Part shown: piece after piece, positions 1 to 17,812 of the stretch
How positions within the stretch are numbered: position 1 is the first letter of the stretch
How the letters are laid out: each line of letters opens with the position of its first letter
Virus record (IMG/VR): IMGVR_UViG_3300042549_003167
Source of the DNA: a virus
Lineage: Duplodnaviria > Heunggongvirae > Uroviricota > Caudoviricetes
Strand: one strand, 5' to 3'
DNA length: 42,924 nt
Notes under the pieces: model-generated
Database searches by the model: none
Seen by the model: only the letters and a program-made list of their open reading frames with translations
Told to the model about the DNA's origin: nothing
Position numbers and translations under genes: made by a program

Positions 1-135
1 GCACTCCCTTGCCTTTGCTTATTGGTATTGGTTTTGGTTGGGGTTGGTCGTTATGGTTTTGGTCTTGCACTGCTTCCAGTGGTTAGGTTGGTAGGGTAGT
101 GTTTTAAGTAGGTGGTTGAGGTGGGGATATGCTAA
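1..135. other. G/T-skewed non-coding segment
   Basis: Plus strand almost entirely G and T with many GG tracts (ggttttggttggggttgg, ggttaggttggtaggg); no ORF; unlike the A-rich sequence that follows. Confidence 0.6.
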
Positions 136-184
136 AGATATTAGTTACTAAATAGCTTAGCCAATTTAACAAATGGGTTATGTT

Positions 185-250
185 AAAATTTTGTGAAAGG
201 TTTTTTATTGTGTTCTAATTTACATAAATGCGTATTATATTGCAGTCTAA
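185..250 (+). promoter_or_regulatory. Possible Bacteroidota-type promoter for the early cassette
   Basis: TTTTGTG upstream and TATATTGCA at about 236-244 resemble -33 TTTG / -7 TAnnTTTG but are imperfect; lies before the first ORF. Confidence 0.35.
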
Positions 251-289
251 TAAGGGAATAACCCAAAAAACATATTAAAAAAAATTATT

Positions 290-541
290 ATGAATTATTT
301 AAAATTGATGGAAAAAAACCCGACTAAGTACGGAGAAATTAAAAACAATTTAGGGCAATTAATTGTATTTTATGAACACCCAGTAAAAGGAGATGAAAGC
401 CCAGTAATTGCAGTATGCCACGAATTAAAATTAGCCGAAGTAACTGATTTTTACGAATTGGATGATATGACTGCAACTGAAGAAGATTATCGCCCTATGT
501 TTGTAGATGGTGCTTTGCGTATGGGTTATGAATTTATGTAA
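290..541 (+). CDS. Hypothetical early protein (83 aa)
   Basis: ORF with A-rich leader (aaaaaaaattattATG); first gene of the plus-strand array. Confidence 0.75.
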   Translation: MNYLKLMEKNPTKYGEIKNNLGQLIVFYEHPVKGDESPVIAVCHELKLAEVTDFYELDDMTATEEDYRPMFVDGALRMGYEFM

Positions 542-550
542 ACAATTAAA

Positions 551-576
551 GGGGCTTGAAATATAGCCCCATTTTT
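551..576 (+). terminator. Intrinsic terminator-like hairpin
   Basis: GGGGCT-tgaaatat-AGCCCC followed by ATTTTT, just after the 290..541 stop. Confidence 0.6.
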
Positions 577-586
577 GAAAAAAATA

Positions 587-619
587 AAACAAATAAAAAA
601 ACAAATAAAAAAACAAATG
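587..619 (+). repeat. Tandem 12-bp A-rich repeat ending in a start codon
   Basis: AAACAAATAAAA x2 plus AAACAAATG. Confidence 0.7.
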
Positions 620-1165
620 GAAAACACTTTAACAACTAAAAGCTTTTTTAACCCTTATTTTTTAGGAAATAAGCAATTAAATGCTATTAATGTATTTAAT
701 AGTAACGAAATTTTATGCTCTTTTAAATGGCTAGGAAATAATAACAAATACCCCCAAGTCCAGTTTGAAGAAATTAAAATGAGAAATAAATTAGATCTAA
801 ATAAAAAAGAAGTTTTTTGCTTTAAAAATGAATTATATATTCATTCGGAATTATGCGATTTTCAAGAATTAGAAGAAGAACTAAATTATAAAAGCGAAAC
901 GCACAACCACTATAAAACAAAGTTTAGCATTACCTTGAATTGTTCCCACGATATGCCCTATTTAAACGAATTAGGGAAGATTAGCTATAAACTAACCCCA
1001 GTAGAAAAAAGAGTAATAAACGACTTTTTCAAGCATAGAAGCGAAGAAACTGAACAAGGTGCAAGACTGCTAGAAATTCAAAAGAAACTTGATAAAATCA
1101 CTGGTAAATATATTAGTGCCGAAGATATTTTAAAGATTGAAGCAGAATTTAATATAAAATTTTAA
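617..1165 (+). CDS. Hypothetical early protein (about 182 aa)
   Basis: Track ORF 575..1165; ATG at 617 preferred because 575 lies in the terminator tail and 617 has an aaacaaATG leader. Confidence 0.75.
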   Translation: MENTLTTKSFFNPYFLGNKQLNAINVFNSNEILCSFKWLGNNNKYPQVQFEEIKMRNKLDLNKKEVFCFKNELYIHSELCDFQELEEELNYKSETHNHYKTKFSITLNCSHDMPYLNELGKISYKLTPVEKRVINDFFKHRSEETEQGARLLEIQKKLDKITGKYISAEDILKIEAEFNIKF

Positions 1166-1267
1166 ACCCAGTAATATGTTAAAAGTTATTTTATTTATAC
1201 TCCTTTGCTTAGGCTTAGGTATTGAATTTATTTATTATTTTTTCTAATTTTCAAAAATCAAAAACAA

Positions 1268-1480
1268 ATGAAAAAGAACACAAACGAAATGCGATTAAAA
1301 AAGTTAATTGCTACTAACCATCCTTTGCTAAATGCTTTGCTAGTGGAAAGGATATGTAAGATTATGGAAATAACCGAAGCCGATATAAAAGAGAATCCCC
1401 AAGAGTGGAAAAGGTCTATCATTCATCCCTCGTTATTTCACGACCTTAATAGTAATGTTAAAGAGATTTTCAATAGTTAG
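1268..1480 (+). CDS. Hypothetical early protein (70 aa)
   Basis: ORF, aaaacaaATG leader. Confidence 0.75.
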   Translation: MKKNTNEMRLKKLIATNHPLLNALLVERICKIMEITEADIKENPQEWKRSIIHPSLFHDLNSNVKEIFNS

Positions 1481-1498
1481 TAATAAACCCCCAAAGTT

Positions 1499-1525
1499 GG
1501 CAGACCTTCAAAACTGCCTAATTTT
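1499..1525 (+). terminator. Weak hairpin, possible terminator
   Basis: GGCAG-10 nt-CTGCC followed by taattttt in an intergenic gap. Confidence 0.3.
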
Positions 1526-1531
1526 TAAGCT

Positions 1532-1732
1532 ATGAATAAACCAGTTAAACTAATGCAAAAAGTATTTGCCCTAGATAGGCAGATTAAAACCGGTAAATAT
1601 AACCCCTACCCACTTATTAAGCTAATTGATAAGCATAGGCAAGAAATATGTTGCCAGTTAAAACTAGATGCAAATAGTACATTTTTAGACATAGACAATA
1701 GACTAAAACAAATCAAATTTGAATCACAATAA
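1532..1732 (+). CDS. Hypothetical early protein (66 aa)
   Basis: ORF in tandem array. Confidence 0.7.
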   Translation: MNKPVKLMQKVFALDRQIKTGKYNPYPLIKLIDKHRQEICCQLKLDANSTFLDIDNRLKQIKFESQ

Positions 1733-1741
1733 AAAAACCTT

Positions 1742-1951
1742 ATGAAACTAGAGCAAAAAACCTTTGAAGAAATTTACTTAATTTTTGTTAATGATTTTTT
1801 AACCATTGAAAAAATGGCAGAATATTACAAAGTAAACCAAGACTTATTAAGACATTGGATTGATTGTGGTAAGACTGCGAATAACACACAAGCAGAAGAC
1901 TGGGAAGAATTGCAAGACAAAATAAATGAATTATATTTCAACCTTATCTAA
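1742..1951 (+). CDS. Hypothetical early protein, possible helix-turn-helix (69 aa)
   Basis: LTIEKMAEYYKVNQDLLRHWI resembles an HTH segment. Confidence 0.65.
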   Translation: MKLEQKTFEEIYLIFVNDFLTIEKMAEYYKVNQDLLRHWIDCGKTANNTQAEDWEELQDKINELYFNLI

Positions 1952-1979
1952 TTTTCAAAAACAATAAACAAAAAAAACT

Positions 1980-2381
1980 ATGCCAGTATTTAATTTTGAA
2001 TTATTACGAACCTATTCAACAATCTTTGAAATAGAAGCAGACACCCAGTTAGATGCCATTAGGCAATTTAAAGAACTTGGGGATAGTATTTATACTGAAG
2101 AAATGAAACAATGCGAAGTAATTGAAGAAGTAGTAAAAGGGGATAAATATGCTCGTTCTTGTACTTGCTGTGGGAAAGGTATGAATGAAGGATATTTTAT
2201 AAACTACGAATATTTTTGTAGTGATAGTTGCAGAAGTACTGAATATCCAACGGATGTTTGGTTAAAACTCTATGAAGAATGCGAAGCAAATGATGGAGAT
2301 TATTGCTACTGGACACACTGGGAAGATGAATCCGACTACCAGTACCAAATTATTGATGGCAAATTGCAACAAATTAATTAA
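1980..2381 (+). CDS. Acidic Cys-rich early protein, probable Zn binding (133 aa)
   Basis: CTCCG...FCSDSC motif; N-terminal FEIEADTQLDAI resembles the DpnD/PcfM-like small fold. Confidence 0.7.
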   Translation: MPVFNFELLRTYSTIFEIEADTQLDAIRQFKELGDSIYTEEMKQCEVIEEVVKGDKYARSCTCCGKGMNEGYFINYEYFCSDSCRSTEYPTDVWLKLYEECEANDGDYCYWTHWEDESDYQYQIIDGKLQQIN

Positions 2382-2401
2382 TAAATATAAATTTTAATCA
2401 A

Positions 2402-2677
2402 ATGGAAAGAACCCAGTTAATAGGGGAACTGCAAAGCAAATACCCTAAAATGTTTTTAAGTACCACCGAAGAATTTAATGGAGAGGAAGGTGGGATATGG
2501 ACAAGTGGAGAAGATGCCCCAGTAAACGCAAGAGGATTGCCAATTTTCGACTATTACACCGAAAAGTACGATAAGTACGATTTAGGCATAGAGTCCAAAT
2601 TTAGCGAATACCTTGACAAATTAGGATGGTATTGCGAATGGTATGATTGTGGAACTATATTTATTTATCAAAATTAA
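2402..2677 (+). CDS. Hypothetical early protein (91 aa)
   Basis: ORF with GWYCEWYDCGT motif; tandem array. Confidence 0.75.
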   Translation: MERTQLIGELQSKYPKMFLSTTEEFNGEEGGIWTSGEDAPVNARGLPIFDYYTEKYDKYDLGIESKFSEYLDKLGWYCEWYDCGTIFIYQN

Positions 2678-2688
2678 AAAATAAAATT

Positions 2689-3210
2689 ATGAAGATTGAA
2701 CTAAAGCAAATCAAGTATTCGGATTGGGCAAGTGAGGAAACTTCTTGCTTCCAAGCAAACATTTATCTTAATGGTAAAAAAGTAGGTTTTTGCAACAATG
2801 ATGGCAAAGGTGGATGTACCAGTTATAATAGGGTAACTGGCATTAGTTACGAAGTAATTCACGAAATGGAAACCTACTGCGAAGGATTGCCCCCAATAGT
2901 GTATGAAAGTAACTTGTATAAAGATGGTAAATGCACTATTAAAATGAATTTAGAGCATTACTTGGATGATTTATTTTATGCCTATTTAAAGGCTAAAGAC
3001 AAGGCTAAAATGGACAAAAGGATGGAAAAGGCAATCTTGATAGGCAATGACTATAAATATCAAATTATCAGCTTCAAAATGCCATTAAAAGATATATGGG
3101 AACAAAGCCCCCAGTATTTTGCTAAAACATTAAAAGAAAGTCTAAATAAATATGCCGTAAATGGTAATATTTTACTTAATAAAAACATTCCTCAACAATT
3201 TTTAAATTAA
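2689..3210 (+). CDS. Hypothetical early protein (about 173 aa)
   Basis: Track ORF 2647..3210; in-frame ATG at 2689 has an aaaattATG leader; SEETSCFQANIYLNGKKVGFCNNDGKGG motif. Confidence 0.8.
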   Translation: MKIELKQIKYSDWASEETSCFQANIYLNGKKVGFCNNDGKGGCTSYNRVTGISYEVIHEMETYCEGLPPIVYESNLYKDGKCTIKMNLEHYLDDLFYAYLKAKDKAKMDKRMEKAILIGNDYKYQIISFKMPLKDIWEQSPQYFAKTLKESLNKYAVNGNILLNKNIPQQFLN

Positions 3211-3221
3211 AAACAAAAAAA

Positions 3222-3515
3222 ATGGCAACACCACAAGAATTACAAAATTTTACCATATTTAATATGGAATCGGTTAGACTTGTACGAGTAAGTACCACCA
3301 GTAGTGATGAAGAAGACTTTTTACTGGTTACTGACTTACTGGATGATGAGATACAAGATATTGTTACCCCTATTGTAGAAGCCGAAAGGGAAAACCCACA
3401 GGATGATGTTCATTTCTACGATAACGAAGGCTTGATATGGTCATTAAAAGACCATTACCCAAATAATTTAATAATACAATATACTATTGATAACCTTGAT
3501 TTATTAACAATTTAA
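3222..3515 (+). CDS. Acidic hypothetical early protein (97 aa)
   Basis: ORF, poly-A leader. Confidence 0.75.
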   Translation: MATPQELQNFTIFNMESVRLVRVSTTSSDEEDFLLVTDLLDDEIQDIVTPIVEAERENPQDDVHFYDNEGLIWSLKDHYPNNLIIQYTIDNLDLLTI

Positions 3516-3525
3516 AAATACAATT

Positions 3526-3852
3526 ATGGGAATTTTTGATAACGAAAAGGCTGAAAGAGAATTAGCCAGTAAAGAGCATTATTTCTATGTAGAAAGAAAA
3601 ATAACTACTTGGGTAAGGGAAAGACATTGCATTGAAGCAGAATCAAAAGAAGATGCTATAAAGCTAATGTTTGATACCTTCAAATTAAATGAATTGGAAT
3701 GTACCGATACATACATTGAGCAAGAGCATTTATACAATACCGATACCCCAATGAGTATTGAAGGTAATGAAGGTAACGCTACTTGTGAACTATATTATGG
3801 TAGTAATCAAGAGGAATTTATTATTGATAACTTAGGTAAAACAACAATTTAA
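3526..3852 (+). CDS. Acidic hypothetical early protein, DpnD/PcfM-like segment (108 aa)
   Basis: VERKITTWVRERHCIEAESKEDAI pattern. Confidence 0.7.
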   Translation: MGIFDNEKAERELASKEHYFYVERKITTWVRERHCIEAESKEDAIKLMFDTFKLNELECTDTYIEQEHLYNTDTPMSIEGNEGNATCELYYGSNQEEFIIDNLGKTTI

Positions 3853-3854
3853 TT

Positions 3855-4076
3855 ATGAAAGTATTAAAAGCAAATGATGGCTTTTTGTGGGCAGATGTTA
3901 CCCAAATAGCCGAAAGTTTATGGTACACCGGAGATTGGGATTTGTATGCCATTTATGATGATGGTAGCGAAATAGAACACTTAATTGAAAGTGAACAAGA
4001 ACTAGAAAGGCTTGTAAAAGAAAAAACTACGATTGCCATTGAATTATGTCCTATTGAAGAAATTACTAATATTTAA
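3855..4076 (+). CDS. Acidic hypothetical early protein (73 aa)
   Basis: ORF in tandem array. Confidence 0.7.
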   Translation: MKVLKANDGFLWADVTQIAESLWYTGDWDLYAIYDDGSEIEHLIESEQELERLVKEKTTIAIELCPIEEITNI

Positions 4077-4094
4077 AATTTAAAACTAAAAATT

Positions 4095-4739
4095 ATGCCA
4101 AATTGGTGCTACAATTCACTATGCGTTAGTGGAAACAAAGAAATACTTGCAGACTTTGTAAGTAAAACATTAGTCCCTTGCAATATGTCAAGCGAGGATG
4201 AATATGATGAGTCCCATAGATTCACATTTAATATCTTACACCCTACCCCTCAAGCATTGGAAGGTAATACCTCTCCATTGAGGATATTAGAAGGAGAAGA
4301 TGAAACCCAGTTTAAAAAACGAATGGCTGAAAACCTACGATTATATGGTGCAGAAGATTGGTATAGATGGCATTTAGATAATTGGGGGACAAAATGGGAT
4401 GCTAAAAGTACCAGTGTTGAACAATTAGATGATACTAATTTTAATGTTCAATTTCATACTGCTTGGAGTCCACCGATTGACTGGTTTGAGAAAATTATCC
4501 CAATGTACCCACAATTAGAATTTGATTTGATTTTTGATGAAGAATCATTAGACTTTTGTGGTAGGATGACTGGCATTGAAGGAGAAGTAGATTTACAAGT
4601 AGGTAAACCCTATTTTACGGATGAAGAAGACAATAGAGTAATCTATGATTTAGACAAACACCAGTGGAAATACGAAGATAGTGGGAAACTCATTGATGAT
4701 GAGGATTTTTTCCCTATTGATGTAAACCCCTTTGGATAA
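4095..4739 (+). CDS. DUF1281/Api92(YubB)-like ferredoxin-fold protein (214 aa)
   Basis: MPNWCYN start, DWYRWHLDNWGTKW and FHTAWSPP motifs characteristic of this family. Confidence 0.8.
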   Translation: MPNWCYNSLCVSGNKEILADFVSKTLVPCNMSSEDEYDESHRFTFNILHPTPQALEGNTSPLRILEGEDETQFKKRMAENLRLYGAEDWYRWHLDNWGTKWDAKSTSVEQLDDTNFNVQFHTAWSPPIDWFEKIIPMYPQLEFDLIFDEESLDFCGRMTGIEGEVDLQVGKPYFTDEEDNRVIYDLDKHQWKYEDSGKLIDDEDFFPIDVNPFG

Positions 4740-4797
4740 ATATTTTTTTAATTAAATTAATTATTATACCTTTAATTTTCAAAAAAACAAAACGAAA

Positions 4798-5382
4798 ATG
4801 AAAACAACAACTACCAACCTTTTTGCTTCAGCAACTAAGGTAAAAGAAACCACCAAAAAGACCGACAAGAAGGTCATTTCTAGCCCTATTTTGGGCAACA
4901 AAGTCCAAAGATATGCCGAACTCAAGCAACTGATTGATTCTGCCACTGGAGAGCTTAAAATGATTGAAGGCGACATCAAGGCAGAAGGCAAAAGCCTTTT
5001 TATGAAAGAGTATCGTACACAACGAAGTACGCCCGACAATTTTAAGATTCAAGATGAAACTGGCAATTCTTGTATGTTTATTTGTATGGATAAATATACT
5101 ATTGTAGATGAAGGGAAGGCAAGTATTTTAGGTCAATTTGATGGCTTACTGGCTGAAAATGTGGTTTATAAGTTTAATGCCGACCTTGTTGAGAAATATG
5201 GTGCAGTATTAAGCGAATTAATCATTAATTGCCCCAATATTGATGACTTGGACAAGGGAAACCTTATTACTGGAGAGAAAACCTTTTCAGTAGCTAAAGG
5301 AAGTATTGATCGTTTGATGCAATATGATAACCCCGAACAGGTTTTTGAATTAATTAACCCTATTGTAGCACTTAAAAAATAG
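4798..5382 (+). CDS. Hypothetical early protein with N-terminal coiled coil (194 aa)
   Basis: ORF, A-rich leader, heptad segment RYAELKQLIDSATGELKMIEGDIK. Confidence 0.8.
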   Translation: MKTTTTNLFASATKVKETTKKTDKKVISSPILGNKVQRYAELKQLIDSATGELKMIEGDIKAEGKSLFMKEYRTQRSTPDNFKIQDETGNSCMFICMDKYTIVDEGKASILGQFDGLLAENVVYKFNADLVEKYGAVLSELIINCPNIDDLDKGNLITGEKTFSVAKGSIDRLMQYDNPEQVFELINPIVALKK

Positions 5383-5386
5383 TATT

Positions 5387-5698
5387 ATGAATAATTTATT
5401 TTTATACCCCGAAGACTTTGCCAGTCATAAAGACTGGATGCAAGTATGCGATTCATTAAACATACCTTATGAATCTATCTCCGTTGAAGTTATATACGAA
5501 AGAGTATATGCAGAGGAAGAAGAAACTAACCGAATATATTGCAATCTTTGTGAATCTGCCTATATTGAAACAAGGCAAGAAATAACAAAAGATACATTTT
5601 ATTGTTGCAATATGTGTAGGGAATATGAAAACTCCAATGGGGCAGAAGTTAGAGTAAACAATTTTGATGAATCTAAAACCCTTGATTATGCTAATTAA
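5387..5698 (+). CDS. Putative Zn-finger protein (103 aa)
   Basis: CNLC...CCNMC pairs. Confidence 0.7.
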   Translation: MNNLFLYPEDFASHKDWMQVCDSLNIPYESISVEVIYERVYAEEEETNRIYCNLCESAYIETRQEITKDTFYCCNMCREYENSNGAEVRVNNFDESKTLDYAN

Positions 5699-5723
5699 AG
5701 AAACCCTTAAATTTATATTTGAG

Positions 5724-5828
5724 ATGCTAAAATTCTTTTTTATTAGTGTCCCCCTTGCTTGTTGCGTATATTTTACTGCTCACCTTTATTTTGAAATTAA
5801 AAGATTATATAATGGAAAAAACAGCTAA
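5724..5828 (+). CDS. Small hydrophobic ORF not in the track (34 aa, MLKFFFISVPLACCVYFTAHLYFEIKRLYNGKNS)
   Basis: Manual translation; fills the gap between 5698 and 5812; preceded by TATATTTG at 5714-5721. Confidence 0.45.
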   Translation: MLKFFFISVPLACCVYFTAHLYFEIKRLYNGKNS

Positions 5829-6045
5829 AAAACTCTTATGTGAAACAATGTTTAAGATGTTTAAAACTGATGCCTTACCACATTTAGATATGGAAGACTT
5901 TATTGTAATGTGGAGAGCACTAGCAGAAAAATGGGATTGTGATACTATGGATGATGATTGGGCAGAATTTACCGAAGAAATCAACTGCATAGCCTCAAAC
6001 CGAGAAAATTATTTTAATGAAATCTTTGAAAAACATTTTGAATGA
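5812..6045 (+). CDS. Acidic hypothetical early protein (about 77 aa)
   Basis: Track ORF 5746..6045; in-frame ATG at 5812 preferred; ATGA overlap with next gene. Confidence 0.7.
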   Translation: MEKTAKKLLCETMFKMFKTDALPHLDMEDFIVMWRALAEKWDCDTMDDDWAEFTEEINCIASNRENYFNEIFEKHFE

Positions 6046-6701
6046 TACCATATCTAAATTTTAACTACATATACCCCCCTCGCCCCGAATATAAGATACC
6101 ACCAAAAGACTTGGATAACTTTGATACTGGAGAATACATAGTGCAACCTAAGTACAATGGTACTTGTTGCATAGTATTTACTAATGGCAAGGAAGTTTAT
6201 GTTTACAATAGGCATAAACAACCTTTGTCTTGGTATAGTTCCGATATTGAATTTGATAAACTTGCTCAAAGCAACCAGTGGTATGTTTATACTGGAGAAT
6301 ACCTTAACAAAGGCAAATTAGGGGAAACTGGCACAAAAGAAAAGGACAAGTTTATTATATGGGATATTCTTGTATGGGCAGACCAGTATCTTATTGGGGA
6401 TGACCTACTGACAAGAGTAAAACTATTAGAAGAAACATTCCCTTGCCAAAGAGCAAAGATAAACGAGGATGGCTTAGAAATGTATGAACATTTATGCCAA
6501 ACCGACCTTCAAAACATATACAAAGCCCCTAGTTATATGAATGGCTTTTCTAAGCTATTTAAAGACATCTGCAAGATTGACTTGTACGAAGGCTTAGTAA
6601 TTAAAAAGATCGATAGTAAGCTATCTTATGGCTTTCAAGAATTAAACAATCACGACTGGCAGATAAAATGCCGTAAACCAACAAAAGTATATCATTTTTA
6701 A
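6042..6701 (+). CDS. ATP-dependent ligase-type nucleotidyltransferase (adenylation domain only, 219 aa)
   Basis: Motif I QPKYNG, Ia YNRH, III TGEY, IIIa FIIWDIL, IV EGLVIK, V WQIKCRK; no OB-fold domain follows. Confidence 0.8.
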   Translation: MIPYLNFNYIYPPRPEYKIPPKDLDNFDTGEYIVQPKYNGTCCIVFTNGKEVYVYNRHKQPLSWYSSDIEFDKLAQSNQWYVYTGEYLNKGKLGETGTKEKDKFIIWDILVWADQYLIGDDLLTRVKLLEETFPCQRAKINEDGLEMYEHLCQTDLQNIYKAPSYMNGFSKLFKDICKIDLYEGLVIKKIDSKLSYGFQELNNHDWQIKCRKPTKVYHF

Positions 6702-6849
6702 AAAAAAACTATGGAAAAAGAAACAACAAAAACAATTTATTTGCACTTGCAAGATGACGGAAGTTATAATACTTTGCTATTTAAAATTATTTAACCAAGT
6801 AACAAACAATTTAGTAGTAACATTAAAAAACATTTAAAAAATAACAATT

Positions 6850-7062
6850 ATGGCAAAGTATCAATTAATGCAAAAGACAGAAAACAATGGAGAAGTATGG
6901 TATTACATTCTTAAAGAAGATGGTATGTCGGTAAATAATAGTTGGACAATGACATTAGAAAAGGCAGAAGAAATGTTTGAAGAAATTCAAAAAGGCAAAC
7001 CTACTGAACCTATTATTAAAATTTTAAAAACAATAGAAGTAGATGATTCAAATGATAATTAA
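6850..7062 (+). CDS. Hypothetical protein (70 aa)
   Basis: ORF, acaattATG leader. Confidence 0.7.
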   Translation: MAKYQLMQKTENNGEVWYYILKEDGMSVNNSWTMTLEKAEEMFEEIQKGKPTEPIIKILKTIEVDDSNDN

Positions 7063-7204
7063 TTATTTTTCTAAAGAAAATAAAGAAAAAAGACAAATGT
7101 TAAGAATTTTGAATAATAAAATAGCTGAAACTAATGATTATGAAGAATTACTTAAACTAATAAAGATTTATAATAAATTAAAAAATGAAAACAAAACAAA
7201 TTAG
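7052..7204 (+). CDS. Possible small ORF not in the track (50 aa, or 35 aa from ATG 7097)
   Basis: Manual translation MIINYFSKENKEKRQMLRILNNKIAETNDYEELLKLIKIYNKLKNENKTN; fills a gap. Confidence 0.35.
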   Translation: MIINYFSKENKEKRQMLRILNNKIAETNDYEELLKLIKIYNKLKNENKTN

Positions 7205-7388
7205 TGTACTGGAATACTCTCAAAAAATAAACCCAGCTTATTTTAGAAAAAATAGGAAGTATCCAGAGATGCCAATAACAAGACATACTATTATGTATAG
7301 AATTAGAAACAATATGGAACTACCCGAAGTACTTAAATATACTAGGGTAGGTAAAGTTCATATATTAATGGTAAACGAAAATTTTTAA
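7185..7388 (+). CDS. Basic small protein, possible HTH/excisionase-like DNA binder (67 aa)
   Basis: ISVLEYSQK...ITRHTIMYRIRNN...TRVGKVHIL pattern. Confidence 0.6.
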   Translation: MKTKQISVLEYSQKINPAYFRKNRKYPEMPITRHTIMYRIRNNMELPEVLKYTRVGKVHILMVNENF

Positions 7389-7397
7389 AAAACAAAT

Positions 7398-7631
7398 ATG
7401 ACAAATAACATTGAAGACATTTTGGGTAAACCCAGTGAGCCTAGTAATTTTAGTACCTTTGGAGATTTTACTCCCTTTGAAAGGCAAATGATTATGGCTG
7501 AACTATATCATAATGCTTGGTACGATCAAGAAAGATTTGAGCAGATGTATGACCTTTATAACAAATGGGCATCCAGTCCAGTTAAGGAATGTAAATTTAT
7601 ATTACCCGAAATCCAAGAAGATGAAAAATAA
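7398..7631 (+). CDS. Hypothetical protein (77 aa)
   Basis: ORF, aaacaaatATG leader. Confidence 0.7.
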   Translation: MTNNIEDILGKPSEPSNFSTFGDFTPFERQMIMAELYHNAWYDQERFEQMYDLYNKWASSPVKECKFILPEIQEDEK

Positions 7632-7809
7632 ATATGTAATGAGTCCAAATTACATTCTTACCTTAGAGAATGAAGAATTAAGGGATAGAATAATGGAATT
7701 AACGAAGCAGTTTAATGAATTAAAAAAGAAATATGAGAACGAATTTGCCGAAGGAGTGGTACAAAGTAAAGGGATTCATGAGATTGTTCAAGAACGACAA
7801 ATTAATTAG
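7621..7809 (+). CDS. Coiled-coil hypothetical protein (62 aa)
   Basis: Track ORF 7513..7809; in-frame ATG at 7621 avoids a long overlap. Confidence 0.6.
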   Translation: MKNKYVMSPNYILTLENEELRDRIMELTKQFNELKKKYENEFAEGVVQSKGIHEIVQERQIN

Positions 7810-7924
7810 GGAATTTAAGTTTCAATCTGCTCACGATAGAAGAAGAATGTTAAGAATATGGAACTCGGAAATTAAACCAAATGGTGCTGATTGTTATGAA
7901 TTAACAATAATTAATTTAGACTAA
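7733..7924 (+). CDS. Hypothetical protein (48-63 aa), last gene of the plus-strand cassette
   Basis: ORF; true start may be ATG 7778. Confidence 0.55.
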   Translation: MRTNLPKEWYKVKGFMRLFKNDKLIREFKFQSAHDRRRMLRIWNSEIKPNGADCYELTIINLD

Positions 7925-8081
7925 TTATATCAATATCTCCTTCGGGAAGTAAATCCATTTCTTTTATCATTACTACTTCCATGTTCTTAAACTGATTAAG
8001 AACCTCAAGCAAAGACTCGGCATAGACCAATTTAGTTAGGTTTATGCCGTTTTTTTTGAAATATACTCGGTATGCTCTCAT
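7911..8081 (-). CDS. Small ORF not in the track (56 aa, MRAYRVYFKKNGINLTKLVYAESLLEVLNQFKNMEVVMIKEMDLLPEGDIDIISLN)
   Basis: Manual translation; ATGA overlap with the stop of the upstream minus-strand gene. Confidence 0.6.
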   Translation of the reverse strand: MRAYRVYFKKNGINLTKLVYAESLLEVLNQFKNMEVVMIKEMDLLPEGDIDIISLN

Positions 8082-8353
8082 TTCGTGCCGTCTTGGAATG
8101 GTTCGTGGTCAGTGGACTGGTCAATTCTTCTATACCCTTCTTGCCATAAAATCTTGGTCAAGGTAACGGACTTTTTAATTATCATTTCTTCGGAATCTTT
8201 GGGTTGTAATATATGTAGCAGTTCATGTAAAAGCACCTCCAGATGCTTGCGAGATTTCAGTCTGCTATCAATTTCTATGATACCATCACTTGAAGCTATG
8301 CCGTAGGCTTGCTCCTTCCCTAGTTTGCGATATATAATTTTGATGCGGGCCAC
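8078..8353 (-). CDS. Small zincin-like metallopeptidase (about 91 aa)
   Basis: LLHELLHIL HExxH motif; GTG at 8353 follows the upstream stop (track start 8419). Confidence 0.7.
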   Translation of the reverse strand: MARIKIIYRKLGKEQAYGIASSDGIIEIDSRLKSRKHLEVLLHELLHILQPKDSEEMIIKKSVTLTKILWQEGYRRIDQSTDHEPFQDGTK

Positions 8354-8354
8354 A

Positions 8355-9362
8355 TTAAACAATTTTCCCTTTAAAGATACGTTTATTATTGAATTCAAAG
8401 TCTTCTCCATTAGGATCAAGTTCTACCTCTGCAAAACCATGATTCCACTTGTTTAAAGGCATATAGGCCGGGTGCAATTCGCTTAGGCATCCCAACGACC
8501 AAGTAGTTACCATCTTCCCAGTAAGAGTGGGTTCTGTATGTTCTGATGTTTGGTGGTTATGACCTTGAAAAGTGCTGACCTTTGCTTTAAGGAATAATCC
8601 TCTAGCAGGATTTACAGGCGCTGATATTCCACCAACATATTCGTGACCATGAATTCCCCAAAGGTTATTTAGTTTCATTGGTCTTTTGTCCCCTATTATT
8701 TCTATGCCTCTGGCTCTTGCCTTAATGATATTTTCAAACTCAAACTCTTCTATACCCACTAATTCACCGGCTTTCTCGTAAAGAAAATGCTCGTATCTTT
8801 CCTCGTGGTTTCCAATTTTGAAATATATTTTGCACTTTAGTTCCTTCTCAAAGATATCAAATAGGGCTTTGAATGTATCTAGTTCTAGCTTAAAGTTTCT
8901 TTTCTTGGGGTCTTTGATAAATCTGCTTAGTCTATGGCAGTCAATAGTATCGCCATTTAGTAGTAGTGCATCGGGTTTTGTTTTCTTTGCATATTGGATG
9001 GCTGCTGTTATCGCATCTATGCTATGGTATGGTACATGGATATCAGATAGGATTAAAACTTTCTTATGCCCTTTAAAGATGTATGGTTCAAATGCTGTTT
9101 CATCTGATTTAGGAAGATTGTAAGGATTGTATGGTCTAGCTTCGGCCTTTATAAATTCACTATTTTGGATAGTTTTTTTTGACCTATGTATGTTTCCATT
9201 TTTACCTTCAATGTATCTTAAAGAAGACCTAGCCCGTTCTTCATTTATGAATGTTAGATTATTTTCTGCGTACATTATCCTAGCTAATTTCTTAGTAGGC
9301 ATATCGGGGTGTTTGGTTCGGTAGGTTTTTGCGATTAGGCTGTTCCCGTTGTTGGATGGCAT
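8355..9362 (-). CDS. Calcineurin-like metallophosphoesterase with N-terminal helical extension (335 aa)
   Basis: SDIH, GDTID, GNHE, HGH and GHNH motifs in order. Confidence 0.9.
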   Translation of the reverse strand: MPSNNGNSLIAKTYRTKHPDMPTKKLARIMYAENNLTFINEERARSSLRYIEGKNGNIHRSKKTIQNSEFIKAEARPYNPYNLPKSDETAFEPYIFKGHKKVLILSDIHVPYHSIDAITAAIQYAKKTKPDALLLNGDTIDCHRLSRFIKDPKKRNFKLELDTFKALFDIFEKELKCKIYFKIGNHEERYEHFLYEKAGELVGIEEFEFENIIKARARGIEIIGDKRPMKLNNLWGIHGHEYVGGISAPVNPARGLFLKAKVSTFQGHNHQTSEHTEPTLTGKMVTTWSLGCLSELHPAYMPLNKWNHGFAEVELDPNGEDFEFNNKRIFKGKIV

Positions 9363-9390
9363 ATATTTTATTTGTATGGAGAATAGTGTG

Positions 9391-9879
9391 TTATTTCACT
9401 AGTTTTTCATTTCCTTTATATGGTAAATAGTGAGGTTTGCCATCTTTTTTCACACAAATCAATACTTCATTTTTTAAATTTGCTTCATCGTAACTAACAT
9501 GACACCAAGACAATTCTCCATTTATTGGATATTCAGCTATTAATTGCTTAAATTTTAGATTGTCTTTTATATAATGAAACACTTCATTATTGGTAACGCC
9601 ATGACTATGCCCGTCTTGGTCAAGGTCTAGCGCCCTCCCCTTGGAATGGTCTGATGTAAGAGAAGCTCCCGGCGTGCAAGCATTCAGTTCTTTAGACCTA
9701 TAGCCCGAACTGATATGAATAGGACAACGGAAATTGTTTCTTATTTTTTCAAATACATTCTCTGCTAACAATTTAAAGTTAGCTATGTGTTCTTCTGTTG
9801 GCATATTAGATATGCCTTGACGCTTGGCAGTTTCGCTACGAATTACTTCGGCTAAGGATAAATGTTCTGATAATTTCAT
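9391..9879 (-). CDS. Endolysin, peptidase M15 family (162 aa)
   Basis: ISSGYRS, SDHSKGRALD and WCHVSY Zn-peptidase motifs; next to holin-like gene. Confidence 0.9.
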   Translation of the reverse strand: MKLSEHLSLAEVIRSETAKRQGISNMPTEEHIANFKLLAENVFEKIRNNFRCPIHISSGYRSKELNACTPGASLTSDHSKGRALDLDQDGHSHGVTNNEVFHYIKDNLKFKQLIAEYPINGELSWCHVSYDEANLKNEVLICVKKDGKPHYLPYKGNEKLVK

Positions 9880-10103
9880 TAGTCTTGTGTTTTATCTTTT
9901 TTAAATATTTTTTCTACTGCTGTTAATCCTAAAGTTCCAAAGGCTAATAAAGCTACTGCTTCTACTAAAACGGGACTTGGAGCAAAATGCTCCTCACTAA
10001 ATTGGTTATGGTACATAGTAGCACATAAAGCTATTGTACATAATAAACCACATAAACGCTTCATACTATATCTGCCATTATCTTCTTGAAAAAATTGTTT
10101 CAT
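9879..10103 (-). CDS. Holin-like protein, two TM helices (74 aa)
   Basis: Two hydrophobic segments, basic C-terminus, overlaps endolysin start. Confidence 0.7.
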   Translation of the reverse strand: MKQFFQEDNGRYSMKRLCGLLCTIALCATMYHNQFSEEHFAPSPVLVEAVALLAFGTLGLTAVEKIFKKDKTQD

Positions 10104-10498
10104 TATTTTAAACTTTGAAATTGTAAAAATATTATTCCTATAAGGATGACTTTTTGGGCGAAGTCGTACTTTTTGTCCTTTTCTTTTTCGGCTTCTCTGG
10201 CAATATAGATGTTTCTATTTGCTTCATATTTCCACTTCCAATTATAGAAGCTATCTTTTGTTTGATATATTGTTTGATAAAGGCTATCATATTTTTCTTT
10301 TTTAATTGTTAACGAATCTTTTAATGTACTTATTGTGTTGTTATATGAATTAAATAATAAATTTATTGTATCAGCTTGCGAAACTTTCATTATAACCACT
10401 GAATCACCTCTAAATATCCTTTTTACGGGGTATTGGGAGTAAGACAAATGGTATGATAGTATCAGCATTAGCGCTATCAAGCTTAACTTTAACTTCAT
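10103..10498 (-). CDS. Exported coiled-coil protein, spanin-like (131 aa)
   Basis: Signal peptide, helical middle, hydrophobic C-terminal stretch, four D(S/T)x sequons. Confidence 0.6.
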   Translation of the reverse strand: MKLKLSLIALMLILSYHLSYSQYPVKRIFRGDSVVIMKVSQADTINLLFNSYNNTISTLKDSLTIKKEKYDSLYQTIYQTKDSFYNWKWKYEANRNIYIAREAEKEKDKKYDFAQKVILIGIIFLQFQSLK

Positions 10499-10736
10499 TT
10501 AACTCTGTTTTTAAATCTTTGTTTTCTTCTTTTAATGTTATTATTGTATTAACGGCTTCCGTTACTATTTGTGATTGTTTTTTACTAGCTTCTTTTTGAA
10601 CTTTAGCACTTGCTTGTGTGTTTTCTTCTACTTTTGATAATAGGTTTTGGAACTCCCTATCTTTTTTTGCAGTTTCACTTTCGTTCTGTGCAGTAGCTTG
10701 ACATCCAAACAAAAATATTAATAAAAAATATCTCAC
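10410..10736 (-). CDS. Lipoprotein with coiled coil, o-spanin-like (108 aa)
   Basis: MRYFLLIFLFG-C lipobox, long heptad region, Pro-rich C-terminus; overlaps next gene. Confidence 0.65.
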   Translation of the reverse strand: MRYFLLIFLFGCQATAQNESETAKKDREFQNLLSKVEENTQASAKVQKEASKKQSQIVTEAVNTIITLKEENKDLKTELNEVKVKLDSANADTIIPFVLLPIPRKKDI

Positions 10737-10852
10737 TTTTTATTTTTTTTCTCTTTTATTCTTTCATATACATACATTCCCATAAATGCCCAACACATCC
10801 CCACTAATAATAATTGGATATGAAACCCATAATCGTAAAGAAATTCTCTCAT
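10733..10852 (-). CDS. Small single-TM protein not in the track (39 aa, MREFLYDYGFHIQLLLVGMCWAFMGMYVYERIKEKKNKK)
   Basis: Manual translation; TAATG overlap upstream and GTGA overlap downstream. Confidence 0.65.
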   Translation of the reverse strand: MREFLYDYGFHIQLLLVGMCWAFMGMYVYERIKEKKNKK

Positions 10853-11154
10853 TATTTGATGGATTTAATTGCGCCTAATTCCTGCAATGTTCTTAATTGA
10901 GTAGTAGATACAGCTTTAGCTGAGTCGCTTCTTCTTAAAGCTTCTTGTACTAAGTCTAGTCTATTCTCTACTTTTTCAATTCTAACATCTTGAGATTTAG
11001 CTTGTGATTGGAATGTGCTTCTTATATCTATATATAAATATGAAATCGCAATTAGAACAACAAATAAAGTCCCAACTACGGGGTTTTTTGAAAATTCTTT
11101 AAAACTCAATGGTAAAGGATTAGCTCCTATGTTTACTTTTTTACTTGTAGCCAT
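10852..11154 (-). CDS. Single-TM coiled-coil protein, i-spanin- or holin-like (100 aa)
   Basis: TM VVGTLFVVLIAISYLYI followed by a coiled coil. Confidence 0.65.
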   Translation of the reverse strand: MATSKKVNIGANPLPLSFKEFSKNPVVGTLFVVLIAISYLYIDIRSTFQSQAKSQDVRIEKVENRLDLVQEALRRSDSAKAVSTTQLRTLQELGAIKSIK

Positions 11155-11155
11155 T

Positions 11156-11707
11156 TTAGAATAATTTTTTATATAAGCCTAGACTTATTTGGTTAGTGGT
11201 AAAACTAATGGTATAAGCCTCTTTTTGTTTCTTGTAATTTAAACCAACTCCTGCACCTATCTTATTATCAAAACGTCTAATATCACCTAATAAGCCTATA
11301 AAAAGCTCGTTCTTAGGCTTGTGGTAGATGTCGTTGGTAATTGTGATGGTTTTTTCGGAAAGATTGGCTACATATGACCTTCCTATGATTCTATTTTGTG
11401 TAATAGTATCTTGAATATATACGCTGTTATCCGCATTTATCTGTAAAGTATCCGAATAAGCCTTGATTGTATTGTAGTCATTGACGATATAAGTAGTGTC
11501 ATGTACTTCGTCAATTTGATAGAGAGTATCTAAAACGACAAAAGGGATGTCATTCCCTTTCTTATATTTTTTTATTGTATCGTGCTTTATTATAGTGTCT
11601 ATCTTAGTGATAACTTTGGTACCACCCCCTCCATTATTAGGGGCAAGTACGAAAAATAGCACCACAATTATTAGTGCTAAGATTAATATGTTTTTAGCTA
11701 TTTGCAC
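11156..11707 (-). CDS. Membrane-anchored envelope protein with DT-rich linker and beta-rich C-terminus, spanin-like (183 aa)
   Basis: N-terminal TM, six DT(I/L/T) motifs, amphipathic strands ending in Phe. Confidence 0.7.
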   Translation of the reverse strand: MQIAKNILILALIIVVLFFVLAPNNGGGGTKVITKIDTIIKHDTIKKYKKGNDIPFVVLDTLYQIDEVHDTTYIVNDYNTIKAYSDTLQINADNSVYIQDTITQNRIIGRSYVANLSEKTITITNDIYHKPKNELFIGLLGDIRRFDNKIGAGVGLNYKKQKEAYTISFTTNQISLGLYKKLF

Positions 11708-11879
11708 GATTCTTTCTTTCTTTATTCTTATAGTAATAATGTCTTAGTGCAAATAATCCAGAGCAAATACCAATTAGACTAGCAAGTAAGCTAATATATG
11801 GTTGAATTGTAGTTATAGATACAGCAGCACTTAATAAACTTACAGATGCAGATACGTCAGCTAATGTGTTATTTCCCAT
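11694..11879 (-). CDS. Small membrane protein, holin/antiholin-like (61 aa)
   Basis: Hydrophobic core, basic C-terminus; first gene of the lysis cassette. Confidence 0.6.
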   Translation of the reverse strand: MGNNTLADVSASVSLLSAAVSITTIQPYISLLASLIGICSGLFALRHYYYKNKERKNRANS

Positions 11880-11892
11880 GTCAATTTTTTAC

Positions 11893-11916
11893 CAAATATA
11901 GCCAATAATTAAATAA
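11893..11916 (-). promoter_or_regulatory. TAnnTTTG promoter for the lysis cassette
   Basis: Minus strand TTTAATTATTGGC-TATATTTG ending 13 nt before ATG 11879. Confidence 0.55.
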
Positions 11917-11944
11917 ATTTACTTATATTGTCCACTTTTTTTCA

Positions 11945-12169
11945 TCATATTGTCCATTTAGCCCTTGGACAAGCTCCGGAACCTACAGGAGTAAACACCT
12001 TAATTTTTGTAGCGCACCCGCAAGCTTTGCAATGTTGTACTATGGCATCTTTTGCCCATTCCTCGCAATCCATACATATTTCAAGTCTTTTTTCGGCCAC
12101 TTCTTTTTGTTCTTCTGTTGGGTTCATAGCAGTCATATAAGACAGCAAGATTTCTTTTACTTTGTTCAT
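11945..12169 (-). CDS. Small Cys-rich metal-binding protein, DUF6171-like (74 aa)
   Basis: RLEICMDC...CKACGC...CPRAKW pattern. Confidence 0.7.
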   Translation of the reverse strand: MNKVKEILLSYMTAMNPTEEQKEVAEKRLEICMDCEEWAKDAIVQHCKACGCATKIKVFTPVGSGACPRAKWTI

Positions 12170-12957
12170 TTTTTAAAGTATTTTTTGTAGTAGTTTTCGT
12201 TAAATTTAAAAGCATTTATATTAATGTACTTGTAATATTTATCGTAGGTATCTTCTAATTCTTTTGATGTTATTGGTTTTAATGGTTCTGTTGGAATATC
12301 GCCCGATGCTTTTTTATGGTTTTCAAAATTGTCTGGATTGTCTATATCACCACTTTGTTTATGCCCAGCTACCTCTGACGGGTCGCCCCAATTAAAGCAA
12401 TATGATGGCAAATAATCTTTATTATGCTCATCTAATTGACCTTCATCTCTTAGTTTAGTGTACCAACTTAAACCTTCAAATCCTGTTTTATCCACTCTAA
12501 AGCCTATCTCCCTTATTTTATCCATTTTAATAATAACACTAGCTTCCATTGTATTCATTACTAATTCAAGCTTATCTTGTGTAGCAAAAAAGCTCATCTC
12601 TGGTTTCCAAGCATCTTTACCATTAGCCTCTATCCCATCTACTGCTTGTTCTAAATGCCATGGAAGGTAAATATCATCATCATCTGCTAGCATAAAATAA
12701 TCACCCGTAGCATGAGTAACTGCATCTCTACATATTTGCCCGCGATTCTCGTATGGATTACCGGTTAGATAGTCTATGTCATTATTAATTATAATTACTG
12801 CTGGGTCTTGAATATCTAATTCATAGGAATTTTCCTTATCAGTATTAAATATTATTAACTCCTTATTTGGATATGTCTGAGCATAAAACTGCGATAATAT
12901 TCTTCTTACGCAATAATACCTTCTGTAGCTAGTACAAACAAAACTTACTTTTTTCAT
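12166..12957 (-). CDS. Glycosyltransferase, GT2-like (263 aa)
   Basis: VSFVCTSYRR, QTYPNKELII and ADDDDIYLPWHL motifs. Confidence 0.85.
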   Translation of the reverse strand: MKKVSFVCTSYRRYYCVRRILSQFYAQTYPNKELIIFNTDKENSYELDIQDPAVIIINNDIDYLTGNPYENRGQICRDAVTHATGDYFMLADDDDIYLPWHLEQAVDGIEANGKDAWKPEMSFFATQDKLELVMNTMEASVIIKMDKIREIGFRVDKTGFEGLSWYTKLRDEGQLDEHNKDYLPSYCFNWGDPSEVAGHKQSGDIDNPDNFENHKKASGDIPTEPLKPITSKELEDTYDKYYKYININAFKFNENYYKKYFKK

Positions 12958-12966
12958 ATTTTTAAT

Positions 12967-13767
12967 TTACCAAATACCCCCATCCATAAATTCTTGCAAA
13001 TATGGGGTAGCATTTGTGTTTATATTTTTTTCTTTTATAAAATCTAAAATTCTTTCTCTGCCATATGATTGTTGCATAGCGACACCACCTTCTAATAAAA
13101 TGCCATTTTCATCATTTTCGGTATATTTAATTCTATCTGGTATTTCTGTTTGTAATAATTTAGCAAATCTTTGTTCAAAGATTGCCGTATTATCATCCAC
13201 ATAATTATACCATCCCGACTTAGCTATAATTCCTGATAAAACTTCAGGTCTGCAACCAAATACTCTAGTAGACCTTTCATCTCCACCTATATACGCTCTA
13301 TGCCAAGTAATAGCATCGGCATCTTTTAAATGAACCTTTAATTCAGATAATATATCATATTTTAATATAGATGTACCAGTAAGTTTTAAACACATATTAG
13401 GGCTAGCGCCATAGCACCTATTGCCCATTAATGCGGCTTGCATAATACCTAATGCCATAGATGTAGAATCTCCTCTTTGCTTATTTAATCTGGGAGTATA
13501 ATGAATTACTTTATACTCTTCTAGCTGTTTAAAATATTTTTCTGCTTCATATAGCAAATTAACATCTGAACAATAATTATTAGGTTTCACTACATTGTAT
13601 GGGTCTTCTATTTGATGCAGTTCGCAAGCTTGCTCTGCTTCTATGTTTGGCGTAGAGCTGTCAACAATAACAACAGCAAAATTATTTTTTATTATTTGTG
13701 CATTTAAAGATAAAGACAATAATACTTGCTTTATTCTATTGCATGATGTCAACATTAATACATTCAT
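12967..13767 (-). CDS. Putative GT-A-like protein in the glycosylation operon (266 aa)
   Basis: VVIVDSS and CLKLTG segments resemble degenerate GT-A folds; operon context. Confidence 0.5.
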   Translation of the reverse strand: MNVLMLTSCNRIKQVLLSLSLNAQIIKNNFAVVIVDSSTPNIEAEQACELHQIEDPYNVVKPNNYCSDVNLLYEAEKYFKQLEEYKVIHYTPRLNKQRGDSTSMALGIMQAALMGNRCYGASPNMCLKLTGTSILKYDILSELKVHLKDADAITWHRAYIGGDERSTRVFGCRPEVLSGIIAKSGWYNYVDDNTAIFEQRFAKLLQTEIPDRIKYTENDENGILLEGGVAMQQSYGRERILDFIKEKNINTNATPYLQEFMDGGIW

Positions 13768-13768
13768 G

Positions 13769-14452
13769 TTATTTAATTAATCCTTGAGCGAATTTCTCTT
13801 TGTTTGTATGCTCCCAACTATATAGAGCATGGTGTTTTAAAATAGTATTTTGGAATGTATTATAATCTCCATATTCTATATTATGTTTTTCTAAATTTTC
13901 TCTCATAATTCTGTGGTATTCCCATATTTCATTGCTAAATTCATTATCTAATCCTAAGTATTTTTTTACTTCAATACCAGTCCATCCGGGCGAATATGGC
14001 GCATTGCTATAATCTTTAACCAATGGCATATTATCAATCATATGCTTAACCATAGGATGATTTTTAACAAAAGCATAAACATTATTTGTAATAGTATAAT
14101 CACAATGCTGCCAGCCATACCCCCAATGTCCAAAAACAATGGCATCTCTATTTTCTATTGGCAATGTATTTAGATTATCAATATATTCCCAATCTATATC
14201 CAAATACCATCCTCCATAATTATATACAATAAGCCATCTTAACATATCTGCACAAAAAACATAATCTTTATTTTCATACATTAACCAATACATCTCTTTT
14301 AAATTTTCTGGTATTTCTGGGAGATTATTATCAGTCCATAAAAAATACTCGTAATCAGGATGATTTTCTTTTAATTGATTTGATATATGTCTTTCTCTAA
14401 TTGGGATTTCGTATCCACCCACCCAAATTTGATGTATAATTTTTGGAATCAT
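13769..14452 (-). CDS. Glycosyltransferase, GT32/OCH1-like DXD family (227 aa)
   Basis: MIPKIIHQIW, ADMLRW, YNYGGWYLDID motifs. Confidence 0.9.
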   Translation of the reverse strand: MIPKIIHQIWVGGYEIPIRERHISNQLKENHPDYEYFLWTDNNLPEIPENLKEMYWLMYENKDYVFCADMLRWLIVYNYGGWYLDIDWEYIDNLNTLPIENRDAIVFGHWGYGWQHCDYTITNNVYAFVKNHPMVKHMIDNMPLVKDYSNAPYSPGWTGIEVKKYLGLDNEFSNEIWEYHRIMRENLEKHNIEYGDYNTFQNTILKHHALYSWEHTNKEKFAQGLIK

Positions 14453-15033
14453 TATTTAAACTTAATTAATTGACTACCTCTAAAAGTGGGTAAATACTCA
14501 TTCCATTCTATATGTTCTGCATATTCTTTTAAAAAGAAATCAGTAGAATTTCTTACATCTTGATGATAATCATAGTCGTCTAATATTACATAATTACATT
14601 TCCCTATGCATAGTTTTAAATCATGAACTTTGCAATCATAATCGTGGCATCCGTCTATAGAAATTAAGTCAAAGAACTGAGGCAATTCGGTTTCTAATTG
14701 AGAGTCTTTGTGAAGTATTTCCCATTTTGCATTTCCTGTATAATATTTTGCTATGTTTTCATTAGCAATATTATTATCACCATAAGTTTCCAAATCCCAA
14801 CCCAGTGCATATTCTAATTTATCTGATGCCAACATTGTAGGTAAGAATGAAAAACCAAATCTAACTCCTATTTCTAAAAATGATGTTGGCTGTATTACTT
14901 TACCCAATGCCCAATACCATTCAAAACAATTACCACTCCATACATAATCGTATGAATCGTATTTAGTGAAAAATTCAGATGGAATAACATCATGAATTGA
15001 TTGTGGTTTTTCTTTTAATAATTCTTCTATCAT
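14452..15033 (-). CDS. Class I SAM-dependent methyltransferase, Methyltransf_24-like (193 aa)
   Basis: FLEIGVRFGFS and ISIDGCHDY motifs. Confidence 0.85.
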   Translation of the reverse strand: MIEELLKEKPQSIHDVIPSEFFTKYDSYDYVWSGNCFEWYWALGKVIQPTSFLEIGVRFGFSFLPTMLASDKLEYALGWDLETYGDNNIANENIAKYYTGNAKWEILHKDSQLETELPQFFDLISIDGCHDYDCKVHDLKLCIGKCNYVILDDYDYHQDVRNSTDFFLKEYAEHIEWNEYLPTFRGSQLIKFK

Positions 15034-15959: not shown

Positions 15960-15970
15960 ACTTTTTTTAG

Positions 15971-15992
15971 CAAAGTTATTTAATTAAATTAA
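15971..15992 (-). promoter_or_regulatory. TAnnTTTG promoter with upstream TTAATTTAATT element
   Basis: Minus strand TTAATTTAATT-AAA-TAACTTTG ending 11 nt before ATG 15959. Confidence 0.65.
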
Positions 15993-15997
15993 TAAAC

Positions 15998-16375: not shown

Positions 16376-16405
16376 GGGTTAAAGATAAGATTTTTACCAT
16401 TAATC

Positions 16406-16425
16406 ATTAATTTAATTAAATTAAT
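16406..16425. promoter_or_regulatory. Perfect 20-bp AT palindrome in a divergent promoter region
   Basis: ATTAATTTAATTAAATTAAT between divergent genes starting at 16375 (-) and 16449 (+). Confidence 0.65.
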
Positions 16426-16448
16426 TACTACTTTTACAAAAACACTAT

Positions 16449-17810: not shown

Positions 17811-17812
17811 TT

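Follow-up and report, generated by a model that had tools for sequence, protein, structure and literature searches.

The stretch of tailed-phage DNA considered here (Caudoviricetes; IMG/VR record IMGVR_UViG_3300042549_003167), whose 42,924 nucleotides are referred to below as the window, carries at its left end a strong excess of the 5-mer CCAGT and its reverse complement ACTGG. The sites fill a rightward cassette (positions 290 to 7924, plus strand) of about 21 small open reading frames (ORFs), putatively early or leading genes, a label taken solely from gene layout and position. What makes the case unusual is that within one phage family the same 5-mer has been erased, left in a single orientation or driven to a six-fold excess depending on the lineage, with convergent enrichment in the same cassette. 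We suggest that CCAGT is contested in an arms race with an orientation-dependent restriction system, and that in the lineage of the window the sites have come under direct selection, perhaps as self-marks or decoys; to this reading as a whole we assign a probability of about 0.42.

CCAGT excess in the left-end cassette

The motif was first noticed in a reading of the letters alone, and this original prediction, which listed 26 CCAGT and 19 ACTGG between positions 76 and 7582, proved correct at each of its 45 coordinates. The sites of this motif-rich domain amount to 5.7 per kb and are spaced at random (coefficient of variation 0.99), while the remaining 35 kb of the window hold 32. Base composition predicts about 8 for the cassette. 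As the main null model, synonymous codons were permuted among the 21 rightward ORFs, which keeps both the proteins and the codon usage, and 2000 trials gave 16.7 +/- 3.2 sites (maximum 28) against the 45 observed (z = 8.8), with z between 8.4 and 9.8 when the shuffle was repeated with other sets of ORFs. Among the 512 strand-merged 5-mers CCAGT/ACTGG is the most enriched, the next independent word being CCCTA with a z of 5.4. A change-point scan places the boundary of the motif at 7750, where the rightward cassette ends; most other k-mer and compositional boundaries in the window fall between 19 and 25 kb. The excess is real, and three of the four outcomes that the original prediction had named as speaking against it, namely loss under a codon-preserving shuffle, uniformity along the genome and membership in a crowd of equally skewed 5-mers, did not materialize; the fourth, absence from close relatives, did, and is taken up below.

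Sites occupy all three reading frames and both orientations, with 43 of the 45 inside ORFs and two intergenic gaps hit. Just two CCAG within positions 1 to 7700 continue with a base other than T (one CCAGA, one CCAGC), the number given in the original prediction. Their flanks are unconserved and follow base composition, which rules out a longer motif around CCAGT. Codon usage and protein coding are likewise ruled out as the cause, by the synonymous shuffle, by the spread over frames, by the context in which glutamine codons are used (see below) and by the occupancy of 43 out of 116 sites that synonymous choice would allow. Repeats and paralogues were excluded as a source of the motif, as no repeat family carries the sites. 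These results support an enrichment that acts at the level of DNA and is limited to the cassette. That it could be an artefact of repeats, paralogous genes or chimeric assembly is hardly credible; the window is indeed a mosaic, but its junction near 28.2 kb lies 20 kb from the feature, and a Logan contig of 9,710 nt, recovered in a lake run, corresponds to positions 98 to 9807 with zero differences. Other runs hold 97–98% of its words, and the matching lake runs may be the sample from which the window was assembled.

The region adjoining the cassette is depleted of the word. Between 8081 and 20055 there are 5 sites where the synonymous shuffle predicts 12.3 +/- 2.8 (p = 0.003), close to the roughly 4 first estimated for 8–20 kb, and the four sites between 8.5 and 14.8 kb share one orientation. 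Across the 12 kb past the cassette the density equals that of a related lineage, L002, from whose cassette the word has been purged, and a contrast between cassette and downstream DNA like that of the window is also seen in two further relatives (L144 and L142). The contrast reflects either a recent recombination of modules or a pressure that acts next door and spares the cassette, and the latter would favour a decoy or self-mark role for the sites. Some sites form closely spaced inverted pairs (2819–2840, 5421–5437 and 6275–6295), giving short palindromes capable of forming hairpins such as CCAGTC-ATAAA-GACTGG; the number of such pairs is about what the site density predicts.

Word avoidance and site density

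The cassette also avoids a broad range of short words, which is the usual footprint of restriction pressure. Measured against the synonymous shuffle, ACAG occurs 5 times where 34.4 copies are expected, CAGG 2 times (19.2), CATG once (14.6; this word is absent in the window up to about 7 kb), CGTC once (17), and ACGT (6.6) and CTGTA (11.3) not at all, and GGCC is likewise nearly absent. The contexts of the form NCAGN that are in use are CCAGT (45), GCAGA (24), GCAGT (14), TCAGT (11) and TCAGC (8), the other 11 of the 16 occurring 0–2 times each. Words that fall below an expectation preserving proteins and codons, with a depletion confined to the terminal region (in L002, and for CATG, GATC and ACAGT in the window), are what leading-region avoidance leaves behind, the first-step-transfer DNA of T7 and T5 being its classical cases. 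Other words change at boundaries of their own: those containing CpG collapse past about 20 kb (from 63 to 2 for CCGA and from 37 to 0 for CCCG, comparing positions 1–20000 with 20000–42924), and GATC (5 vs. 62) and ACAGT (1 vs. 49) are in effect absent up to about 24.7 kb, both boundaries differing from that of CCAGT at 7.75 kb.

Avoidance on this scale raises the question of whether the excess has any function at all. As the set of forbidden words shifts, CCAGT, itself untargeted, could become the main refuge for sequences displaced from other words and accumulate with time, the window being placed on a long branch; we regard such a functionless by-product, the chief rival to our reading, as possible, if somewhat doubtful. 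It would account for the observation that the motif and its 15 one-step neighbours sum to a roughly constant density across lineages (17.5–22.3 per kb), for the approximately two-fold excess in the permissive relatives L005 and L007, and for mirror-image sinks in purged lineages (ACGGG with z of 6–8, ATTGG with z of 5). It would also fit the codon pairs of the window cassette, where Thr-Gly is written ACT-GG in 9 of 11 cases and Pro-Val CCA-GT in 7 of 7 because ACAGG and CCTGT are forbidden. However, pairs whose alternatives are forbidden (ACAGG, CCTGT, CCAGV) explain only 3–4 of the approximately 28 excess sites, and synonymous sampling with the observed codon usage and the avoided words barred reaches 20.6 +/- 3.3 sites against 45, which is insufficient for avoidance to be the full cause.

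Several observations indicate that more than avoidance is needed. For glutamine, the codon CAG is chosen 10 times out of 10 if the context C_T allows it to complete CCAGT, and in 5 of 74 cases elsewhere. CCAAT (21 copies) and AATGG (33 copies) are not forbidden in the cassette and yet have repeatedly been turned into the motif, even where this changes an amino acid: three independent changes turned AATGG into ACTGG (Asn to Thr), and the step from ATTGG to ACTGG was taken several times. The sites turn over, as a comparison with a relative of 95% identity (L138) reveals loss at about the neutral rate and at least 3 new sites where approximately 0.6 would be expected, numbers that are small. A more distant cassette, L152, is 73.6% identical to the window, as far removed as relatives that have purged the word, and carries 55 sites in its first 8.35 kb followed by 5 in the next 4.8 kb (60 observed vs. 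13.4 +/- 3.4 in a dinucleotide shuffle). Five sites are shared between L152 and the window, 18 are found in the window only and 13 in L152 only, so that two distant lineages have reached around 6 per kb at mostly different positions, with the same sharp cassette boundary; the enrichment is convergent. We conclude from these comparisons that the density of sites, rather than their position, has probably been selected, and convergently so.

Fate and orientation of the word in related cassettes

The first nine related contigs (L001–L009) were found via a stand-alone domain of the ligase/capping-type nucleotidyltransferases, identified by family search at positions 6042 to 6701 (plus strand). A total of 74 related cassettes of at least 2.5 kb was collected with a 194-aa protein (4798 to 5382, plus strand) as marker, the product of the most conserved gene of the cassette, which retains 82–93% amino-acid identity in relatives while the DNA has diverged to 70–84%. 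Some of the 74 loci may be near-identical populations from different samples, and the counts given here are approximate. Exactly zero CCAGT sites occur in 32 of the 74 cassettes (about 40%), many have around one site per kb, and three are hyper-rich (6.1 per kb in L152, 5.7 in the window and 5.3 in L138). Leaving aside words inflated by one locus of deviating composition, ACTGG is the most bimodal of the 512 5-mers across the family. Its states are dispersed over the tree: 12 sites are present in L001 but zero in L002 and L003, both closely related to it. In the complete genome of L002 the purge is limited to the first 20 kb or so (5 sites, as against 88 across the other 46 kb), which matches the finding that motifs in the first-injected region decide restriction sensitivity (PMC12455610). 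At orthologous Thr-Gly positions the window has ACT-GG and purged lineages the rare ACG-GG or ACC-GG, and ACA-GG is used in none. The purged cassettes of L002, L004, L006 and L009 over-use the rare CpG-rich words ACGGG, CCCCG and ACCCG (z of 6–8), which shows that these lineages accept poor codons to dodge forbidden words.

The related cassettes each lack 20–37 of the expected 5-mers, compared with 7–22 in downstream DNA. Over whole contigs of L001–L009, TCGA and GAGAC are nearly absent from all DNA examined in every relative, and CATG, ACGT, GATC and CTAG are absent in combinations specific to the lineage. TCAGG/CCTGA is another word that is switched on and off, with 18–20 copies per cassette in L008, L150, L157 and L159 and zero in the window, L001, L006 and L009; in L008 a further 30 copies follow in the next 8 kb.

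The absence of CCAGT from so many homologous cassettes changes the interpretation, as it can be no fixed signal. The original prediction had seen the motif as a mark of early DNA with a possible tie to host defence, of which the tie is well founded, with relatives purging the word or keeping it in one orientation, and the necessary mark is not, given the zero-site cassettes. These cassettes, together with the lack of a detectable virion RNA polymerase homologue in most cassette-bearing relatives, also dispose of the proposal of a conserved loading, promoter or nicking signal, for which one would look for conserved positions or flanks and for presence wherever the cassette functions, and neither was found. 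An alternative is that the sites are intrinsic to the phage, serving an early or virion-delivered protein for binding, loading or nicking, and that host defences later came to target the abundant word and other lineages dropped it. We consider this unlikely. A density that is selected and limited to the cassette would suit it, as would the presence in the window of a virion RNA polymerase homologue with a giant neighbouring protein; the corresponding enzyme of phage phi14:2 works on single-stranded templates, and an early promoter motif is not known for it (10.1101/2020.03.07.982082). According to a proposal in a preprint, motifs that are abundant in phages become targets of defence (10.64898/2026.09.23.753747). 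However, apart from the zero-site cassettes, the complete relatives of about 67 kb that carry the cassette show no polymerase homologue, the closest relative of the polymerase module (a crAss-like contig of 96.9% identity) has neither the cassette nor a CCAGT-rich region, no cassette gene co-varies with site density when gene content is compared, and the sites keep no fixed position relative to genes.

In a number of relatives the surviving sites point predominantly one way. The ratio of CCAGT to ACTGG is 16:2 in the cassette of L139 and 14:2 in that of L142, and 0:8 and 0:7 in those of L191 and L190, whereas in downstream DNA it is 13:0 in L151, 14:1 in L170 and L171 and 9:0 in L186; heterogeneity of orientation among lineages is significant (chi-squared 65.4, df 26, p = 3e-5). 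Hyper-rich cassettes carry both orientations (26:19 in the window, 19:36 in L152). Type III restriction enzymes recognize asymmetric sites of 5–6 nucleotides and require an inverted pair for cleavage; T7, whose 36 EcoP15I sites all point the same way, thereby evades that enzyme (PMC3874151). The Type ISP and MANTIS systems follow the same orientation logic with longer sites, and phages are reported to show strand-specific depletion of Type III and MANTIS motifs (10.64898/2026.09.23.753747). CCAGT has the form of a Type III site, being a non-palindromic, asymmetric 5-mer, and the likeness to T7 and EcoP15I extends to the several one-oriented lineages, in which the escape expected for Type III is seen; the difference lies in the window cassette, which is dense in both orientations. 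We infer that CCAGT may be the site of a Type III-like, orientation-dependent system with a putative enzyme.

Two other known systems were compared. The original prediction had drawn attention to the type IIS enzyme BsrI, whose recognition sequence is the identical 5-mer, ACTGG. Cleavage by a type IIS enzyme takes place at individual sites regardless of orientation and would leave no co-oriented survivors; lineages with such survivors are unexpected under it and indirectly favour a Type III-like reading, and nothing ties the Bacillus-type BsrI to these lake phages. A Chi-like signal of a host AddAB/RecBCD-type nuclease, enriched near the entering end to switch off degradation, is very improbable. 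The motif is short and selected for density near a probable DNA end, and some Chi sequences are 5-mers (AGCGG in Bacillus subtilis); with Chi and DNA uptake sequences it shares many copies, random positions, synonymous choices and unconserved flanks. Those sequences, however, are properties of whole host genomes that are stable across relatives, and Chi works in one orientation relative to the end, whereas CCAGT is regional, lineage-specific and erased in sister lineages, and is enriched in both orientations in the window and in L152. Neither an orientation bias toward the DNA end nor conservation among phages of the same host, as expected of Chi, was found.

Host defence, genome context and ends

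In the arms race that we favour, CCAGT would be a contested word of restriction type in a left-end cassette common to a family of lake-water phages, probably phages of Bacteroidota. Lineages under pressure would lose the word from the cassette or retain it in a single orientation, the predicted agent being a Type III-like restriction-modification system that hits the first DNA to enter the cell, if the order of entry is as we suppose. In the lineage of the window and, independently, in that of L152, the cassette would have been free of that pressure, and numerous independent point substitutions at scattered, unconserved positions, mostly synonymous and including a few conservative replacements, have raised the density there to about 6 per kb. 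Such sites might be favoured since the same specificity module would recognise them, for example as pre-methylated “self” marks or as harmless decoys. Taken further, the dense CCAGT of a first-entering cassette could serve as an anti-defence device, in which pre-modified self-marks, decoys or roadblocks neutralise a Type III-like nuclease before the rest of the genome arrives, a solution reached convergently in at least two lineages while their sisters erased the word instead; this extension we offer tentatively and hold to be rather doubtful.

A number of points weigh against the arms race as set out here. With its 26 sites in one orientation and 19 in the other the window cassette contains many inverted pairs and would be cleavable if unmethylated. 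No DNA methyltransferase was found in the window, and no gene for CCAGT methylation or restriction was found. The methyltransferase domains at 14452–15033 and 16449–17810 are of generic small-molecule types, and Pfam and PHROGs searches of the early ORFs returned only the ligase-type and DUF1281_C domains, with no methyltransferase, nuclease or known anti-restriction family. The depleted 8–20 kb beside a hyper-rich cassette may reflect the exchange of modules between lineages, and any advantage that dense sites would bring is conjectural. The avoidance model under-predicts other enriched words as well (CCCTA, 21 observed vs. 9.1), and it is therefore incomplete, with unmodelled constraints that make the size of the selected component uncertain; part of what we read as positive selection may be such a constraint, a point that also speaks for a refuge without function. 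Finally, the cassette, which occupies a contig end in each of the 9 long relatives, is the probable first-entering DNA, with entry order and physical ends being predicted only, and a contig of another lake run (X12) reaches 137 nt to the left of position 1, so that the start of the window is no proven physical end.

The pattern resembles the leading-region avoidance described for Murciavirus with the Type I system Mme2I (PMC12455610), in that a single terminal block of small genes lacks short words that are present elsewhere in the genome, and in that the set of missing words differs between close relatives. It differs in that dozens of 4–5-mers are affected, the focal word is enriched in the window and first entry is predicted. 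How the leading DNA of phages and plasmids avoids restriction is under active study. While such avoidance is known and the strand bias of Type III sites is found in textbooks, convergent selection in both directions on a single word in one cassette family has, as far as our searches show, not been described in the literature searched, and nothing relevant was found there on CCAGT/ACTGG as a methylation motif. If the enrichment is functional, it would represent an anti-defence strategy at the level of sequence that has not yet been described. If it reflects a refuge, it shows how strongly avoidance of many sites can skew k-mer content until it looks like a signal, with consequences for predicting hosts from motifs and for inferring the targets of defence systems. 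Either way, the 74 cassettes provide a natural experiment for restriction pressure in uncultured lake phages.

The source DNA is from lake-water metagenomes, and the two arms of the window have different relatives. Its left 28 kb comprise the cassette, lysis genes, a glycosyltransferase island and fibres, and share 70–85% DNA identity with a family of contigs of about 67 kb, four of five of which, when examined, were rated 100% complete by CheckV; these encode portal, terminase and primase-helicase, and a gp66 homologue is not detectable in them. From 28186 rightward the window shares 96.9% identity with a crAss-like contig (G001), which has neither the cassette nor any CCAGT-rich stretch. The arms matching different phages suggest that the window is either a natural mosaic of fibre modules or an assembly chimera. 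The junction near 28186 lies inside a fibre gene (27214 to 28575, minus strand), whose left and right parts match different phages, with the N-terminal 130 aa or so on the crAss-like side. In the right arm a giant protein of more than 3,062 aa (33734 to 42922, minus strand), whose reading frame is still open where the window ends, is a homologue of gp66, the virion RNA polymerase of the crAss-like phage phi14:2, and carries the motif DFDID at residue 2260.

The 194-aa marker protein of the cassette matched no family, and its distant matches were limited to records of metagenomic phages exceeding 600 kb. The AlphaFold model of this protein is poor (pLDDT 42). At the left end, Logan contigs of two lake runs both begin at position 98, and an alternative sequence joins at 297. 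Contig depths (X1, 15.5 vs. 10.3; X2, 376 falling to approximately 180) are at contig level and are not interpretable as a terminal repeat. A Bacteroidota host appears likely from sequence relationships, as the terminase of the family of about 67-kb contigs is distantly related (28% amino-acid identity) to those of Flavobacterium and Cellulophaga podophages. The sole match in a DNA-level search of named phages was one of 112 nt to Cellulophaga myophages.

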